Under the pieces are notes generated by a model. The model saw only the letters and a program-made list of their open reading frames with translations. It did no database searches and was not told where the DNA came from. Positions 18,424 through 24,468 of a stretch of DNA of 32,000 nt are shown one piece after another (position 1 is the stretch's first letter; the number at the start of each line of letters is the position of its first letter). The position numbers were made by a program, and so were the translations under genes. The stretch lies in contig NC_014033.1 of assembly GCF_000025925.1 (NCBI RefSeq), forward strand, positions 1,950,001 through 1,982,000. Reading direction: 5' to 3'. This stretch comes from Xylanibacter ruminicola 23. Its GTDB lineage: Bacteria; Bacteroidota; Bacteroidia; Bacteroidales; Bacteroidaceae.

Positions 18424-18518
18424 AACATGCCTTGGTCGGCACAAGTCAAGAAAATCACCAACACCGAAATGATATGGTATGGCCCCCTCACTGGCAAAAC
18501 TATCAAACTAAAAAGACA

Positions 18519-20450
18519 ATGAATAAAAGATTTTTAATTATTACTATCCTTGCGGCAGGACTGACCAACACCAGCTGGGCCGACAAACAAGAGAAGCTTG
18601 CATCGCCTAACGGCAAAATCGTAGCCAACATCAATATTGGCAAAGAGTTAACTTACAGCGCCTCGTTCAACGGCGAACAGATTCTGAAAGATTGCCCCCT
18701 TAGCTTGCAAGTTGGACAGGAATTATTGGGTGTAAACCCAAAGTTAAGCAACACAAAACGTACTAAGATTGATGAGCAGATACGACCTGTAGTGCCTTTA
18801 AAACAGACCGTAGTGCCCAACAAGGCAAATGCCTTGACGCTCAACTTCAAGGGCTACTGCGTAGAGTTCAGAGCCTACGACAACGGTGTGGCCTATCGCT
18901 TTATTATAAATAAGAAAGGTGTTGTAGATATCGTGAGCGAAGGCATTAACTACCATCTGCCCAAAGCCTTCGAGGCTCACATCTCGAAGACTCGCAACTT
19001 CAACACCTCGTACGAACAGCCTTACACGCACATCAGCACAGCTCAGTATAAGGCCGACGACGAGATAACCTATCTGCCAGTACTGCTCGAAAGTCCCAAA
19101 GGCACCAAGGTACTTATCTCCGAGAGCGATGTGCGCGACTATCCCCACACTTTCCTTAAGAGCACGGGCGCCAATGGTTTTACAGCCGTTCATCCCAAAT
19201 CGCCCGAAACATGGGAGCCACGTGGCGACCGAGGTTGGACCATCACCAAAGAGCGCAACTGCATTGCCCGTACCAGCGGACAGCGCAGCCTGCCCTGGCG
19301 TTTTGCCGTTATCGGCAACGATGCCACGATAGCTGCCAACCAGATGGAACTGGTGCTGGGCGGCAAGTGCGAACTGCAGGATGTATCGTGGATTAAGCCC
19401 GGACAGGTTAACTGGGACTGGTGGAACCACTGGACAGTATGGGATGTGGACTTTGAGTCGGGCATCAACAACGCCACCTACAAATACATCATCGACACAG
19501 CCTCAAAGTTTGGCGTAGAGTATGTGCTACTCGACGAAGGTTGGAACAAACGCGTAGAAGATCCCTTTACCTACAGCGACAATATCGATGTAAAGGAGCT
19601 GGTAGAGTATGGTGCCCAGAAACATGTAGGTGTCATCCTATGGCTGGCGTGGCTCACCGTTGAGCAGCATCCCGCCCTTATTAAGCATTACGCCGATATG
19701 GGCGTGAAGGGACTGAAGATCGACTTTATGGACCACAGCGACCAGTGGATGGTGAACTTCTACGAGCGAACAGCCCGCGAGTGTGCCAAGCATAAGCTGC
19801 TGGTTGATTTTCATGGCTCGTTCAAGCCAGCAGGGTTAGAGCAGCGCCTGCCAAACCTTATCTCGTACGAGGGTGTGCGTGGCTTGGAACAAGGCGGAGG
19901 ATGCAGCCCCGAAAACAGCATCTGGCTGCCATATATGCGCAATGCCGTTGGCGCTATGGACTTTACGCCAGGCTCAATGCAGAATGCTCAGCCCGAAGAC
20001 AATCATGGTACAGGCTCGCTACCGATAGGCGGTGGCACTCGTGCTTATCAGATGGCCCTTTACGTGTGCTTTGAGAGCGGACTGCAGATGCTGGCCGACA
20101 GTCCTACCCGCTATCTGCGCGAACAGGAGTGCACCCAATTCATAGCCTCGGTACCCACCACATGGGACGAAACCCGCGTATTGGCTGCCAAGGCAGGCGA
20201 TTACTACGTAGTAGCCAAGCGCAAAGGTGCAAAATGGTTTGTAGGCGCCATCACAGGCAGCAAGCCGCAGGATATCACTATCAGTCTCGACTTCCTGACT
20301 CGTCCTGCCATGCTCACCTCCTTCCGCGACGGACGCAACGCCCATCGCATCGCCGTAGATTACAAAAAGGAGACTCAGGAGGTGAATCCTGCCACCACGC
20401 TCACCCTCCATCTGGCACGCAACGGCGGCTGGTGCGGCTCGATAGAATAG
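18519..20450 (+). CDS. Glycoside hydrolase family 97 (alpha-glucosidase/alpha-galactosidase type)
   Basis: The start is set at MNKRFLIITILAAGL, a signal peptide. The ~640-aa body carries the YVLLDEGW and GLKIDFMD motifs typical of GH97. Confidence 0.85.
   Translation: MNKRFLIITILAAGLTNTSWADKQEKLASPNGKIVANINIGKELTYSASFNGEQILKDCPLSLQVGQELLGVNPKLSNTKRTKIDEQIRPVVPLKQTVVPNKANALTLNFKGYCVEFRAYDNGVAYRFIINKKGVVDIVSEGINYHLPKAFEAHISKTRNFNTSYEQPYTHISTAQYKADDEITYLPVLLESPKGTKVLISESDVRDYPHTFLKSTGANGFTAVHPKSPETWEPRGDRGWTITKERNCIARTSGQRSLPWRFAVIGNDATIAANQMELVLGGKCELQDVSWIKPGQVNWDWWNHWTVWDVDFESGINNATYKYIIDTASKFGVEYVLLDEGWNKRVEDPFTYSDNIDVKELVEYGAQKHVGVILWLAWLTVEQHPALIKHYADMGVKGLKIDFMDHSDQWMVNFYERTARECAKHKLLVDFHGSFKPAGLEQRLPNLISYEGVRGLEQGGGCSPENSIWLPYMRNAVGAMDFTPGSMQNAQPEDNHGTGSLPIGGGTRAYQMALYVCFESGLQMLADSPTRYLREQECTQFIASVPTTWDETRVLAAKAGDYYVVAKRKGAKWFVGAITGSKPQDITISLDFLTRPAMLTSFRDGRNAHRIAVDYKKETQEVNPATTLTLHLARNGGWCGSIE
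20427..20449 (+). repeat. Direct repeat copy 1 (GGCTGGTGCGGCTCGATAGAATA) at the GH97 3' end
   Basis: This 23-nt string is identical to 23503-23525. Confidence 0.9.
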
Positions 20451-20565: not shown

Positions 20566-23334
20566 ATGAAAAAGGATATCCTAATAGCCGGTAGCCTATT
20601 GCTGACAGGCTGTGCCGACATAACAAACAATGTGGCAGAGAGTTTTAATAACAACCTGATTGCAGAAAACCGCTATCAGATGATTCTGGATGGCCTGCAG
20701 GTAACACTCATCATCACCCTTTGCGCCACGATTCTCGGCACACTATTAGGCGGACTGGTGTGTTGGATGCGCATGAATCGCCACAAATGGCTGCGACACA
20801 TAGCCAGCGCGTATATCGACCTGATGCGAGGCACCCCCGTACTGGTGCTGCTCATGCTGATGTACTATGTACTAATGGCGCCAATAGATGCCACTGGCAT
20901 CGTGGTAGCCATCGTGACCTTTGCCCTGAACACCGCAGCCTACATCAGCGAGATGCTGCGCACCTCCATCCAAGGCATTGACCGAGGACAGACGGAGGCT
21001 GGACTGGCATTGGGCTACACACAACGACAAACATTCATCAGAATCATACTGCCACAGGTAGTCAAGGCTGTCATGCCCGTCTATCAGGGCGAGGTAATAA
21101 GTCTGCTGAAAGGCACAAGCATCGTGGGCTACATCGCTGTGAACGATATGACACGAGCATCCGACCTGATACGCTCACGCACCTTCGACGCCTTCTTCCC
21201 GCTCATCGTCACAGCCATCATCTACTTCCTGATAGCCTGGCTCATCGGCCAACTGCTCACTGCGCTGCTGCAACGACAGCGGACCAAAGCCACAGCTGCA
21301 GCCGTCATGCTGACCCTGTCGGGGCTTGTGGCCTACGTGCCTTCGATACTAACAGATGCGCAGGCAACGACAGCAGACACAACCGACGCACCACCAGCCA
21401 TCAAGGCACTATCGGGCAAGCGCGTAGGTGTCATCATCGGCAGTATCCAAGATATTGCAGTAAGCACGATGGCGCCCGATGCCGACATACTGCGCATGAC
21501 CACCACCACCGACATGATGGCTGCCCTAGAGAACGGCAAGGTGGATGTGGCAGGCAGCGAGAGCCTCACACTGATATTCAACAAGGAACTGGCTGACAAG
21601 GTTGACTCCGTAGGAGCCGGACTTACACCGATTCCTATTGGCGCATGCTTCAACCAGAAAAATACTGAGCTGCAGCAAGACTTCAACAGTTTCCTGGCAG
21701 AAATCCGACGCGACGGCACCTATCTGAAAATATTCGACCGCTGGCAGAAATCCGACAATCCGTCGGCTATGGACATTCCACAGCAGCGCGGCACTGGGCG
21801 CACCGTGCGCATAGCCACCTATCCTGCCATGCCTCCCTTCAACTTTATCAACTCCGGCAAACCATCGGGCCTGGAAATCGACCTGCTGACAGAGTGGGCC
21901 AACCGCCGCAACTGGCAACTGGAATTCCTGGTAATGGACTTTGCCGCTCAGATACCCGCTGTACAGACAGGCAAGGCCGACATGGCCATGGGTGCCATCA
22001 GCATCACCGAAGAGCGACAAAAACAGGTACTCTTCTCCAATGGCTACATCGAGTCGCACATCGTGCTGATCACACGCAAGAATGAAGCATCAATTATCAC
22101 GAATCCGTCATACTCTTCCAGCACAGAGCACCCCACGAGCCCCTGGCCGTGGATGGTAGCAATACTTGTCATTGCCGGTTGCGGGGATTGGTTCATCGTT
22201 CGCCGCAAGCGCTACAGCCAGCGGCAGCCTACTACCAACGCACTGGAGCAGCCGAAGGATGAGAAGGAGGCCGTCATCAGCATCGCCCACATGAAGAAGA
22301 GCTATGGCACGTTTGATGTGCTGCGCGACATCAACCTTGATGTGCATCGGGGCGAAGTGATCTCTGTCATAGGGCCATCCGGCACAGGTAAAAGCACCTT
22401 CCTGCGCTGTCTTAACCTCCTTGAGCAGCCTACTGGCGGGAGCATTCTCATAGGTGGAAACGACATACTGGAACGCAATGCCGACGTGCCGCTATTACGG
22501 CGACGCATGGGTATGGTGTTCCAGTCGTTCAACTTGTTCAATGGCATGTCGGTGCTCGACAATATCTGTCTGGCGCCCATGCAACTGTTAGGAAAAACAC
22601 GGGAGGAAGCCGAGAAACGCGCTCAGCAACTGCTTGAGATGGTAGGACTGGCCGAGCGTGCCACAGCCATGCCCGAGCAACTTTCCGGCGGACAGAAACA
22701 GCGTGTGGCCATAGCCCGCGCACTGGCCATGGAGCCGGAGATATTGCTCTTTGATGAGCCAACCTCAGCCCTCGACCCCACCATGGTGAGCGAGGTGCTG
22801 GGCGTAATGACCAAACTGGCACGTGAGGGGATGACGATGATTGTGGTGACACACGAGATGCGATTTGCCCGGCAGGTGAGTAGCCGTGTACTATTCTTTG
22901 CCGATGGCGTCATCTATGAGGATGGCACCCCCGACCAACTCTTCGACCATCCGCAGCGCGAACGCACCCGACAGTTCATCCAGCAGATACACGAAATGCA
23001 CTTCCTCATCGAGACCAAGCAATTCGACTGGTATGCTATGACGGCCCAGATGGAGCAGTTCTGCCTGCATTATAATCTGCAGCGCCAGCAAATCTTTGCG
23101 GTGCTACACGTCATCGACGAGACACTGACCATCCTCGGCACTCACCCCAATACACACCTGACGCTGGCTTATTCTGAACAGGAAGACACGTTACAGTTCA
23201 TCGTCAATAGTCCTCATGCCGTCGATAGCAGCTTATTCAGCCAAGAAAGTGATGACATAGCTGTGACCATCCTGCGCAACTTCAGCCGCAACATCCATGT
23301 AGATGGCAGCACCCTCCGCATCACCATCAAATAA
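20566..23334 (+). CDS. Single-polypeptide polar-amino-acid-type ABC importer: permease, TM, permuted substrate-binding domain, TM, ATPase and an unknown C-terminal domain
   Basis: It has a lipobox-like N-terminus (LLLTGC) and a His/Glu/Gln/Arg-type permease with an EAA loop ([22 protein letters not shown]). The SBP_bac_3-like segments come next. The NBD carries Walker A (GPSGTGKST), signature ([15 protein letters not shown]), Walker B ([13 protein letters not shown]) and H-loop (VVTHEM). Confidence 0.88.
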
Positions 23335-23432
23335 GCACTTTTTGGCGGAAATACGCAATGATATGATCCAGTCCCTCGTCGAGCGACACCTTGGGCTCCC
23401 ATCCTAATTCGCTTGGCAAGTGTGATGTCGGG
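23327..23432 (-). pseudogene. 3' remnant of an NAD-dependent epimerase/dehydratase (UDP-glucuronate decarboxylase-like) gene, 5'-truncated and frameshifted
   Basis: The minus strand reads PDITLAK, then a frame change, then [27 protein letters not shown]-stop. This is the characteristic C-terminus of extended SDR sugar epimerases/dehydratases, and nothing lies upstream of it. Confidence 0.5.
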
Positions 23433-23436
23433 ACAT

Positions 23437-23526
23437 TACAAAAAGCAGGTGCAGCAAGTAACCCCATCCACCCAACTCACGCTCCACTTAGTTCGCAACG
23501 GAGGCTGGTGCGGCTCGATAGAATAA
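23437..23526 (+). pseudogene. Orphan 3' fragment of a GH97 gene (last 29 codons plus stop)
   Basis: It translates to YKKQVQQVTPSTQLTLHLVRNGGWCGSIE-stop, versus YKKETQEVNPATTLTLHLARNGGWCGSIE-stop for the intact gene at 20361-20450. I hand-aligned 68/90 identical nt. Confidence 0.8.
23503..23525 (+). repeat. Direct repeat copy 2 (GGCTGGTGCGGCTCGATAGAATA)
   Basis: This 23-nt string is identical to 20427-20449. Confidence 0.9.
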
Positions 23527-23545
23527 CTGGAAGGTAGGAAGTTAA

Positions 23546-23649
23546 CTACATAACTACATAAAATCGTTCAAAACACCTGTATATATAGGCATTACATGAG
23601 CTTTACTAACTACATAAAAACTACATTCTAACTACATAAAACTACATAG
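23546..23649 (+). repeat. Left arm: 2 abutting plus 4 phased CTACATAA boxes
   Basis: Boxes lie at 23546-53 and 23554-61. After a 43-nt spacer, four more start at 23610, 23621, 23632 and 23642, spaced 11/11/10 bp. Confidence 0.85.
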
Positions 23650-23656
23650 CATGAAT

Positions 23657-23694
23657 AGTAGCGTAAAAATTCTCTAGAGAATTTTTACGCTACT
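23657..23694. repeat. Perfect 38-bp palindrome AGTAGCGTAAAAATTCTCTAGAGAATTTTTACGCTACT
   Basis: I verified by hand that the sequence is its own reverse complement. It is centred on TCTAGA. Confidence 0.95.
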
Positions 23695-23731
23695 TAGGCA
23701 GAGAAAAATAGTTAGTACGGCACTAAGCCGA

Positions 23732-23749
23732 AAATTCTCTAGAGAATTT
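23732..23749. repeat. Perfect 18-bp palindrome AAATTCTCTAGAGAATTT, sharing a 19-nt core with the 38-bp palindrome
   Basis: The string AAAATTCTCTAGAGAATTT occurs in both palindromes. Their centres are 65 bp apart. Confidence 0.95.
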
Positions 23750-23810
23750 CTAATCGACCAATAAGGAAAAAGATAGCGAGTAAGTTAAAGAGTTTGTTAT
23801 AGTAAGGCAG

Positions 23811-23915
23811 GTAATTACTTTTTGTGCATCGAAAAGTTACTTTTTGCATCTCAAAAAGCTACTTTTTGAGCAACGAAAAGCTACTTTTTGCATCTCGAAA
23901 AGCTACTTTTCGCAG
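23811..23915 (+). repeat. Five tandem direct repeats (iteron-like) with an exact 22-bp period; consensus GAAAAGCTACTTTTTGCATC(nn)
   Basis: The TAC of the core TACTTTT(T) falls at 23816, 23838, 23860, 23882 and 23904. Repeats 2-5 carry the small dyad AAAAG-yTA-CTTTT; repeat 1 is degenerate. Confidence 0.9.
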
Positions 23916-23920
23916 GTATC

Positions 23921-24021
23921 ATGTAGATTTTATGTAGTTTTATGTAGTTTTTATGTAGGTCGAAAAATACAAAAAACCCTTTGTGTATGCGGGGTTTAAG
24001 CGATTTTATGTAGTTATGTAG
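23921..24021 (-). repeat. Right arm: 4 phased plus 2 abutting TTATGTAG boxes, mirroring the left arm
   Basis: ATGTAG occurs at 23921, 23932, 23942 and 23953, spaced 11/10/11 bp. After a 42-nt spacer, TTATGTAG occurs at 24006-13 and 24014-21. Confidence 0.85.
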
Positions 24022-24151
24022 GTCAATTGACAAAAATAAATTTGCAAATTCAAGCAAAAGAGGATAGAAATACGGTGCACGAAACAGTTTTACTCAAACG
24101 TTTACATACGATTTTTGGGGGTGTGGTGATACAATGTTGGCAGAAAGTGCG

Positions 24152-24159
24152 TATCTTTG
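24152..24159 (+). promoter_or_regulatory. -7 promoter box (TAtcTTTG)
   Basis: TATCTTTG lies 76 nt upstream of the ATG at 24235. Confidence 0.45.
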
Positions 24160-24234
24160 CATCAGCTAAACAAAAGCAGAGGCTGAGATAGCTAAACGAC
24201 AAACTACAGATCGAATATATAATAGTTAAAAATT

Positions 24235-24468
24235 ATGGGTGAGAAATTTGTTATCGGAAACCGACTGAAGGAAGAATGGATAGCGGTTCTGGATACAGAC
24301 AAGAAGATACTGGAATTTACCAGCAATCTGGTTAAAGCCCAAGAGTATCAATTGGAAGAGGACGCCCAAATGAACCTCGCCGAAATCCAAAAATCAGGTT
24401 ACTTCAGCGACCTGCAGATCTACATAAAGGACAACAACAGAGCGTACAGAATTGACGAACGCGGCTGA
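24235..24468 (+). CDS. Small hypothetical protein (77 aa)
   Basis: It is the only ORF in this region. It has an upstream -7 box and a strong downstream terminator. I recognise no family. Confidence 0.55.
   Translation: MGEKFVIGNRLKEEWIAVLDTDKKILEFTSNLVKAQEYQLEEDAQMNLAEIQKSGYFSDLQIYIKDNNRAYRIDERG

Follow-up and report, generated by a model that had tools for sequence, protein, structure and literature searches.

The stretch of the Xylanibacter ruminicola 23 chromosome analysed here, 32,000 nucleotides long (assembly GCF_000025925.1, contig NC_014033.1, positions 1,950,001 to 1,982,000; hereafter the window), carries in non-coding DNA two palindromes centred on TCTAGA, and the locus raises the question of what such a pair is for. 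A preliminary description, made from the sequence alone, had read the two dyads as paired operators for a dimeric DNA-binding protein, or the longer one as a hairpin of the type used in origins of transfer (oriT) or single-strand origins. We found that the dyads are the centre of a larger, mirror-symmetric iteron element, that this element belongs to a family in rumen Prevotella and related genomes, and that two genes recur beside it, one for a primase-ATPase of the VirEN type and one for a small HU-HIG protein. With moderate confidence, we favour the explanation that the dyads are paired sites for the HU-HIG protein inside a dyad-symmetric iteron element that is probably the replication origin of the VirEN proteins.

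Anatomy and distribution of the element

The geometry reported in the preliminary description was reproduced with a repeat finder. The two arms of dyad 1 (23657-23675 and 23676-23694) are 19 nt each, 100% complementary and gapless, giving a perfect 38-bp palindrome. A second site shares with it the 19-mer AAAATTCTCTAGAGAATTT (23666-23684 and 23731-23749), the two occurrences being 65 bp apart from start to start. The window was shuffled 100 times with its dinucleotides preserved, and the 19-mer was never matched, even at a tolerance of 3 mismatches. CTAG at both dyad centres is notable because this tetranucleotide is strongly depleted: the 32 kb of the window have 12 occurrences for 115 ± 10 expected, a roughly ten-fold deficit of the kind that the same description had supposed for bacteria, and the related DNA (1.46 Mb) has 0.70 against 3.9 per kb.

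The dyads lie at the centre of a mirror-symmetric element of ~480 bp (23544-24023), itself within a non-coding block of ~560 bp. Each arm of this element consists of six AACTACAT iterons, arranged as an outer doublet plus four units at 11-bp spacing, and the arms are inverted: the six iterons at 23544-23649 read along the + strand and the six at 23921-24023 along the - strand, opposed around the centre. The iteron arms and a set of 22-bp repeats, which together define the element, had been omitted from the preliminary description. The features mapped were:

23544-23559, + strand: outer iteron doublet AACTACATAACTACAT that bounds the element on the left, its units spaced by 8 bp
23606-23649, + strand: left inner array of four iterons, with CTACAT at 23610, 23621, 23632 and 23642 (10-11 bp spacing)
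23657-23694, no strand: dyad 1, the perfect 38-bp palindrome (repeat finder), with the family-conserved core AAATTCTCTAGAGAATTT at 23667-23684
23695-23731, no strand: inter-dyad spacer, copy-specific, containing the quasi-palindrome TTAGTACGGCACTAA at 23712-23726
23732-23749, no strand: dyad 2, AAATTCTCTAGAGAATTT, palindromic without mismatch over 18 bp and at 65 bp from dyad 1
23816-23912, + strand: five tandem 22-bp units with AAAAG(C/T)TACTTTT cores (repeat finder and alignment of relatives)
23921-23960, - strand: right inner array of four iterons, with ATGTAG at 23921, 23932, 23942 and 23953, mirroring the left array
24008-24023, - strand: outer iteron doublet ATGTAGTTATGTAGGT that bounds the element on the right
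24024-24088, + strand: A/T-rich flank, with an outward-facing Bacteroidetes -7-like box TAAATTTG at 24037-24044

Imperfect terminal inverted repeats were found at 23539-23589 and 23978-24028 (51 nt, 75% complementary). Outside the outer doublets a weakly conserved A/T-rich pattern is seen in most copies of the family, and the box TAAATTTG in the right flank may be a promoter, as read from the TAnnTTTG consensus. The AT content is 66% in the centre and 70-73% in the arms, for 51% in the whole window. The 22-bp units separate the dyads from an inner iteron array, in a complete relative (L045 5040-5100) on the side that faces the VirEN gene, and their copy number differs among close relatives, with five in the window, three in L045 and L099 and six in L144. 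The sequence of the unit is different in other copies, and tandem 22-bp units are also present at L142, L216 and L068.

Species-representative genomes were scanned with the pattern TTCTCTAGAGAA-N40-70-TTCTCTAGAGAA. This led to the identification of at least 120 twin-dyad loci, nearly all in rumen Prevotella, Xylanibacter or Prevotellaceae genomes and typically of the form TTCTCTAGAGAA-N53-TTCTCTAGAGAA, with a specific gene pair beside many of them. The preliminary description had called its operator or origin interpretation unsupported should the motif neither recur in relatives nor have an associated protein or transcript boundary; the interpretation passes this check. Several genomes hold 3-7 sampled copies each. 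The centre-to-centre spacing of the dyads is 65 bp in 115 of the 129 copies and 64-66 bp in all remaining but one. In the 1.46 Mb of related DNA the dyad is practically never single, the seeming singletons being paired with a one-base variant; most variants replace the central TA by CG, TT or AA. The idea of paired operators for a dimeric protein is supported as far as a fixed-geometry pair is concerned, but nothing is regulated at the window locus, where the genes on both sides are transcribed towards the element and neither of the two associated genes is found within the 32 kb (tblastn; Pfam on all large open reading frames, ORFs).

A position matrix built from 314 sites showed that, within ±110 bp, only the 18-bp AAATTCTCTAGAGAATTT is conserved and the 53 bp between the dyads are not. 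The inter-dyad spacer of the window, unconserved family-wide, is partly kept in its closest relatives (L045, L099 and L144). The length of the perfect palindrome has its mode at 18 bp among the 314 sites, the 38 bp of the window being the second longest, and the extension of dyad 1 beyond the core differs in other strains at the window locus. Palindromes of at least 24 bp are found at 19 of the 314 sites for ~3 expected, reach 42 bp and have extensions that are unrelated between copies (L053 and L099, for example). We tentatively attribute these long palindromes to template-switch "palindromisation", in which flanks are symmetrised at quasi-palindromes. In a large subfamily (L087, L121, L129, L137 and L154, for example) a palindromic GCAATTGC or near variant lies exactly midway between the dyads and makes the whole centre dyad-symmetric; the window copy lacks this palindrome.

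The predicted single-stranded fold of the dyad region is strong (-24.8 kcal/mol, z = -7.4), as it has to be for any long palindrome; dyad 2 folds into a 7-bp stem with a 4-nt loop. In line with the preliminary description, the dyads are not terminators: no terminator-like site was detected in 23300-24300 and no T-run follows either dyad. No Rfam match at the gathering score and no tRNA or tmRNA was detected in the window.

Inverted iteron arms flank the dyads in nearly every copy. The sequence of the iteron varies between copies, even within one genome, and includes AACTACAT, GCCTACAT, CCGACAT, CTGACAT, ATGACAT, AACACTAC, CTCCACTA, GGGTGCCAC, AAGGGTGT and others. The positions of the iterons in most copies are 0, 8, 63, 74, 85 and 96 bp from the outer end, with a mode of six per arm and dominant spacings of 8, 55 and 11 bp; both arms of the window copy follow this canonical 2+4 arrangement. 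A chromosomal origin or terminus was considered and rejected, with several copies per genome and no GC-skew switch. Two loci from other taxa were also recovered. The first (L072), from a Paratractidigestivibacter sp. metagenome-assembled genome, hardly differs from L050, a Prevotella locus with an HU-HIG gene and twin dyads; mis-binning of the contig or recent transfer is the probable cause. The second, from Streptococcus oricebi (L052), contains an unrelated AGTTCTCTAGAGAACT pair, 68 bp apart.

Associated genes and separable modules

Only two protein families recur among the immediate neighbours of the element, one with 30 members and the other with 14. They are not the helix-turn-helix (HTH)/Xre repressor, relaxase or rolling-circle Rep type of partner, the kinds that the preliminary description had named as genes to look for. 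The first family comprises proteins of ~704-743 aa that combine a BT4734-like_N domain, an archaeo-eukaryotic primase (AEP), with a VapE/VirE ATPase and DUF3874; primase-ATPases of such a type have been named "VirEN" (PMC11724360; PMC5862659). The ATPase region matches one solved structure, PDB 7PDS (E = 9e-9), which is the complex of Rep1 of Staphylococcus aureus pathogenicity island (SaPI) 1 with DNA. PHROGs groups VirEN with phage DNA helicases and primases, and PADLOC recognises the PrimPol domain and returns DRT hits. The second family comprises proteins of ~130 aa that match Pfam HU-HIG (E = 9e-17) and Bac_DNA_binding, as well as TIGR01201 HU_rel below its cut-off. No sequence relative of the HU-HIG protein is found in PDB, and the best 120 homologues listed are all at least 73% identical. 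By tblastn, 35 of the 129 copies have a VirEN gene nearby, 27 an HU gene and 21 both. We also considered the element as a regulator of one neighbour gene family, a candidate that was rejected, the largest cluster beyond VirEN and HU having 3 members.

The association was also seen from the protein side. Out of 80 rumen-metagenome loci sampled for VirEN homologues, 67 had enough upstream DNA, and in 49 of these twin dyads were mapped 260-750 bp upstream of the VirEN gene. In the usual layout the VirEN and HU-HIG genes are divergent and the element fills the gap between them (L045); the order element-VirEN-HU is rarer. Homology between complete loci is restricted to both genes and the element, ~3.1 kb in all, and no iterons were found beyond the element in the 8-kb loci. 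Extra iteron doublets that would be transposon ends of the VirEN-HU cassette were looked for and none was found. Promoter-like TAnnTTTG boxes lie just outside the arms in complete loci. In addition, a third related site, ATTCTCTAGAAAAT, was mapped 4-5 nt upstream of the TAnnTTTG -7 box of HU-HIG in most divergently arranged loci; judged from this position, a protein bound at ATTCTCTAGAAAAT would occlude the HU-HIG promoter.

The arms and the dyads can be found apart. VirEN loci that lack the twin dyads often keep both inverted arms, ~45-60 bp apart (L193 and L235, for example), and therefore the arms go with VirEN. Conversely, HU-HIG genes with twin dyads and with neither arms nor VirEN were found at L050, L073 and L130, and a bare twin-dyad pair at L106, whereas HU-HIG was never seen where dyads are lacking. 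Of the VirEN loci, ~33 of the 48 that are twin-positive have an HU-HIG gene or its remnant, and none of the 17 that are twin-negative has one (Fisher p = 3e-7, a value that is an upper bound on the significance and overstates independence, near-duplicate loci being included in the table). The dyad is unchanged beside VirENs that are 31-32% identical and have differing iterons (L047, L117 and L125). Among 46 non-redundant VirENs, the C-terminus (residues 651-704, DUF3874) and two variable regions track the iteron type with an area under the curve (AUC) of 0.82-0.84, for 0.65-0.73 in the ATPase core; this covariation between VirEN and iteron is suggestive only.

One of the twin-less loci has further repeats of its own. 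In L235 (1060-1310) the iteron AACTATCCACT contains TATCCAC, 7/9 bases of the DnaA-box consensus TTATCCACA, and several other tandem repeat families lie upstream.

As the complete cassette encodes two proteins only, it is simplest to suppose that VirEN recognises the iterons and HU-HIG the dyads. The dyad being a symmetric 18-mer, any HU-family binder would act as a homodimer with its own specificity; the consensus of integration host factor (IHF), WATCAANNNNTTR, has no match on either strand in 23500-24100. We propose that a copy-specific VirEN initiator would be recruited by the six iterons of each arm in their 2+4 arrangement, and that the arms, opposed as in SaPI origins, would allow one hexamer to be loaded on each side. 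An HU-HIG homodimer, supplied in trans, would bind both dyads, 65 bp or about six helical turns apart, and would bend or lock the centre, by which the arms could be juxtaposed or the firing of the origin gated. In complete cassettes the dyads may also help to repress the HU-HIG gene's own promoter via the third related site. The window orphan could act only in trans, and would be either a satellite origin or a sink for the two proteins. The match between six iterons in an arm and a single hexamer is numerology, not evidence.

Several observations weigh against the origin proposal. There is no evidence for an autonomous replicon: no integrase was found beside the 3.1-kb cassette and no circular small or VirEN-bearing contigs were found. 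Relatives on plasmids or phages were not detected either, with no blastn hits in PLSDB or INPHARED and an empty VirEN profile scan of IMG/VR; the sole IMG/VR contig with twin dyads (L015) looks chromosomal. The AT content across 116 copies peaks at ±200-300 bp, that is in the arms and outer flanks, unlike the AT-rich centre of SaPI origins. VirENs that are 98-99% identical accompany iterons differing by one base. For the second protein, 15 twin-positive VirEN loci have no HU-HIG gene nearby, and to this are added the near-duplicates in the table above. HU-HIG as the dyad binder is suggested by co-occurrence and by the promoter site, and a host factor is an alternative. The AlphaFold model of HU-HIG has a predicted local distance difference test (pLDDT) score of 71 and Foldseek ranks HU/IHF first, not significantly (E ≥ 0.3), so that the assignment to the HU fold rests on the Pfam match. 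For the HU-HIG clade, almost no conserved gene linkage has been described and sequence-specific binding was considered unlikely (PMC5499826). Moreover, the majority of the copies have neither gene, which a simple origin model does not predict. What the sequences show directly is the layout of the element, its family, the linked genes and their separability, and the homology of the VirEN ATPase to SaPI Rep; which protein binds which site, the start of replication and any activity of the gene-less copies are what we infer from these data, and this too is to be counted against the proposal.

Gene-less copies and competing explanations

About two thirds of the DNA-sampled copies, that of the window included, have no VirEN or HU gene in the fetched locus. 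The intergenic regions that house these orphans are unrelated to one another and represent each of the four gene-orientation classes. Copies of the same genome are 84-91% identical over ~500-560 bp, have unrelated flanks and lose their homology at the outer doublets, as in RGIG7613 (L044, L046, L110 and L128, with the complete L134) and RUG069 (L122/L151).

Discrete units of this sort, several per genome and with imperfect 51-nt terminal inverted repeats in the window, could be miniature inverted-repeat transposable elements (MITEs), that is non-autonomous mobile elements. Their arms would then be multi-site ends for a transposase or recombinase encoded elsewhere, and the dyads IHF-like host-factor sites aiding the synaptic complex; orphans in every gene-orientation context and sharp ends at the outer doublets are in line with this. 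We consider it unlikely, if the foremost of the alternatives. No target-site duplication was found at the well-defined ends of L122/L151 and L044/L128/L110/L134 or in 54 aligned end pairs, and the recurrent neighbours of the elements include no family of transposases or recombinases. The VirEN and HU-HIG genes lie outside the inverted repeats and not between them. Iterons that differ within one genome would not be tolerated by a single transposase, and the arms are tied to VirEN loci even without the centre.

In several genomes, an orphan shares its iteron type with the complete cassette of the same genome: Ga6B6 (cassette L045; orphan L144), KHT3 (L082; L086 and L148) and RGIG3308 (L076; L102). 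The complete VirEN-element-HU cassette of Ga6B6, L045, has the same AACTACATAAAA iterons and 22-bp repeats as the window orphan. When the window copy, L045, L144 and L099 were aligned, the iteron and dyad columns were invariant and the spacers variable, a pattern which speaks for upkeep of the orphans and against mere decay. Remnants of VirEN or HU genes adjoin some elements (L040, L092, L097, L126, L204, L210, L217 and L228).

These remnants can also be taken for a sign of decay, as they would be if the element served transcriptional control alone, its dyads and iterons being operators of the divergent VirEN and HU-HIG promoters and its orphans decaying leftovers of cassettes. The filling of the intergenic gap by the element in complete loci, with TAnnTTTG boxes outside the arms, and the dyad-like site overlapping the HU-HIG promoter are consistent with such a role. 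We judge this somewhat less probable than mobile-element ends. Orphans keep perfect dyads, exact spacing and six-iteron arms though the genes are gone, and they have been duplicated as discrete units within genomes. A symmetric array of 480 bp with at least 12 iterons exceeds the needs of a promoter, and invariance of the iteron columns between orphan and complete copies, while the spacers drift, points to selection on the orphans.

Ranking lower again is the possibility that orphans are sinks or decoys that would titrate or 'handcuff' VirEN and HU-HIG, for copy control of the cassette or to protect the host from incoming elements with related initiators. A precedent that counts for this view is incA of P1, where, as in other iteron plasmids, an iteron cluster away from the origin sets the copy number; the excess of orphans over complete cassettes counts for it too. 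The iteron type common to an orphan and the cassette of its genome (Ga6B6, KHT3, RGIG7613 and RGIG3308) fits as well, and both the HU-HIG and the VirEN families have been tied to biological conflict (PMC5499826; PMC11724360), with which the PrimPol and DRT hits of PADLOC agree. The proposal is wholly inferential, presupposes the binding assignments of the origin explanation and leaves the spread of the orphans unexplained. Finally, a hairpin or cruciform function, in which the extruded palindrome would be nicked or entered, as in an oriT or single-strand origin, or would serve recombination, is very improbable: a 38-bp palindrome would fold very stably and palindromes of at least 24 bp are over-represented, but the conserved part has only 18 bp, also the modal length, and its 7-bp stem and 4-nt loop are weak for extrusion, the long stem is strain-specific at the window locus, strict 65-bp pairing is unexpected for a nick site, and no relaxase, HUH Rep or recombinase is encoded in the window or recurs beside the copies.

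The replication-origin explanation can be carried further. The iteron-dyad unit might be selfish or domesticated origin-like DNA that spreads without genes within Prevotella chromosomes, served in trans by the VirEN and HU-HIG proteins of master cassettes; orphans would be active, in local replication or amplification or in titration, and HU-HIG would be a sequence-specific, homodimeric IHF-like protein with AAATTCTCTAGAGAATTT as its ligand. We regard this extended form as improbable, and see a modest chance that the orphans belong to a wholly new category.

The element provides concrete candidate cis-elements for the BT4734-like VirEN primase-helicases and the HU-HIG clade, two large Bacteroidota families without known DNA targets. 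The candidate target of VirEN is the copy-specific iterons in their rigid 2+4 layout, and that of HU-HIG the constant 18-bp dyad pair together with the promoter site. If the origin explanation is true, a SaPI-like replication module would be defined in gut and rumen Bacteroidota, the view of HU-HIG as a clade without sequence specificity and conserved linkage would be overturned, and the persistence and duplication of well over 100 gene-less copies in Prevotella chromosomes would need explaining. For annotation, the element explains conspicuous repetitive intergenic regions in rumen Prevotella, and it probably breaks assemblies.

The window itself is ordinary chromosome, with genes for 3-deoxy-D-manno-octulosonate 8-phosphate (KDO-8-P) synthase, RadA, phosphoglycerate kinase (PGK), GH97, an ATP-binding cassette (ABC) transporter and methylmalonyl-CoA mutase. 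Pfam searches of its large ORFs revealed no gene for a relaxase, Rep, HUH protein, integrase, recombinase, transposase or primase. The locus is identical in GCA_019973335.1, and the orphan L144 of Xylanibacter ruminicola Ga6B6 is its orthologue (94% identical). An alternative allele (L003, L009 and L010) has another mobile block at the same chromosomal site, diverging at ~24089; it was tried as a clean empty site and rejected, a different mobile block being present. This block encodes a 762-aa protein with a weak BT4734-like_N domain and an HTH_3 plus HigB-like toxin pair, and it contains inverted CCCAGTATCCCAGT doublets with 8-bp spacing around a 22-bp-spaced ACCTTTCAGGT pair (L010 6063-6539). 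It may be a distant cousin of the element design, without TCTAGA dyads.

To the left of the element, a 3' remnant of a second GH97 gene (23435-23527, + strand) ends in ...LHLVRNGGWCGSIE* and stops 16 nt short of the element. A 91-nt alignment matches it to the end (20359-20450) of the intact GH97 gene at 18432-20450, and in L004 the remnant is longer. The two GH97 copies are separated by a fused ABC permease-SBP-ATPase gene (20566-23334; SBP, solute-binding protein) with a GC content of ~0.55, for ~0.49 elsewhere, which may be an insertion. A 46-aa ORF (23327-23467, - strand) overlaps the end of the ABC gene and resembles a C-terminal fragment of an NAD-dependent epimerase/dehydratase; it has no Pfam match and adds to the signs that the locus has been rearranged. 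To the right of the element, a 77-aa ORF (24235-24468, + strand) has its own TATCTTTG promoter box at ~24153 and is kept beside both alleles in 10 of 10 strain-level loci. No match to this ORF was found in Pfam, NCBIfam, PHROGs or PADLOC.

Comparison with known systems

Full-text searches of the literature found no description of the element. The closest known system is the Pri-Rep-ori module of the SaPIs. Their origins lie beside rep and have 6-12 iterons, half of them on each side of an AT-rich centre and opposed; Rep, a self-loading hexameric helicase, recognises them through its C-terminal winged-helix domain, and one hexamer has been proposed to act on each side (PMC9371898). The likeness extends to the initiator, a self-loading hexameric helicase that is sometimes fused to a primase in the SaPIs, the VirEN ATPase being homologous to SaPI1 Rep1. 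It extends also to the position of the origin, here a proposed one, beside the initiator gene (here in complete loci), to the opposed iterons that flank a centre, and to an iteron sequence that varies by element. In the SaPIs this sequence is read by the C-terminus of the initiator; here the C-terminus of VirEN is what tracks the iteron type best, a covariation that is suggestive only. The present element differs in having a BT4734-like AEP primase and an ATPase of the VirE/VapE type. Its arms are fixed as 2+4 with a 55-bp gap, and its centre, which is not the AT-richest part, usually consists of two 18-bp dyads 65 bp apart with 22-bp repeats. An HU-HIG gene is linked to it, no integrase, packaging or island context is present, most copies are gene-less orphans and the hosts are Bacteroidota.

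In iteron-plasmid and chromosomal origins, such as those of pSC101, R6K (gamma ori) and oriC, sites for IHF or HU allow a DNA bender to shape the initiation complex. An HU/IHF-family protein with defined sites within an iteron origin is likewise proposed here. In contrast to the asymmetric IHF consensus WATCAANNNNTTR, the dyad is a perfect palindrome and occurs twice, with a constant distance of 65 bp. The candidate binder is element-encoded, belongs to the HU-HIG clade and has an apparent operator at its own promoter.

In phage P4, the C-terminal domain of the alpha primase-helicase binds short repeats, and a separate crr site exists in addition to ori. A single primase-helicase polypeptide and further cis sites with the same repeats away from the origin are common to both systems. 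However, the primase of P4 is of another family, there is one crr instead of many dispersed orphans, and P4 has no twin-dyad module.

MITEs and ends of the Tn7 or Mu type have inverted ends made of several protein-binding repeats, with sites for IHF/HU-type host factors in the assembly. The element resembles them as a short non-coding unit of which several diverged copies are dispersed per genome. It differs from them in that neither a target-site duplication nor a transposase was found, in that the genes are outside the inverted repeats and in that the repeats differ within a genome.

As for the HU-HIG clade, many paralogues exist in Bacteroidota, and the 130-aa neighbour matches the Pfam family. 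The subfamily described here departs from what has been published on the clade in its linkage to VirEN genes, in the constant 18-bp dyad pair and in the dyad-like site at its own promoter. The combination of a proposed iteron origin, a constant dyad module putatively bound by HU-HIG and a large gene-less population would be new relative to known iteron origins.

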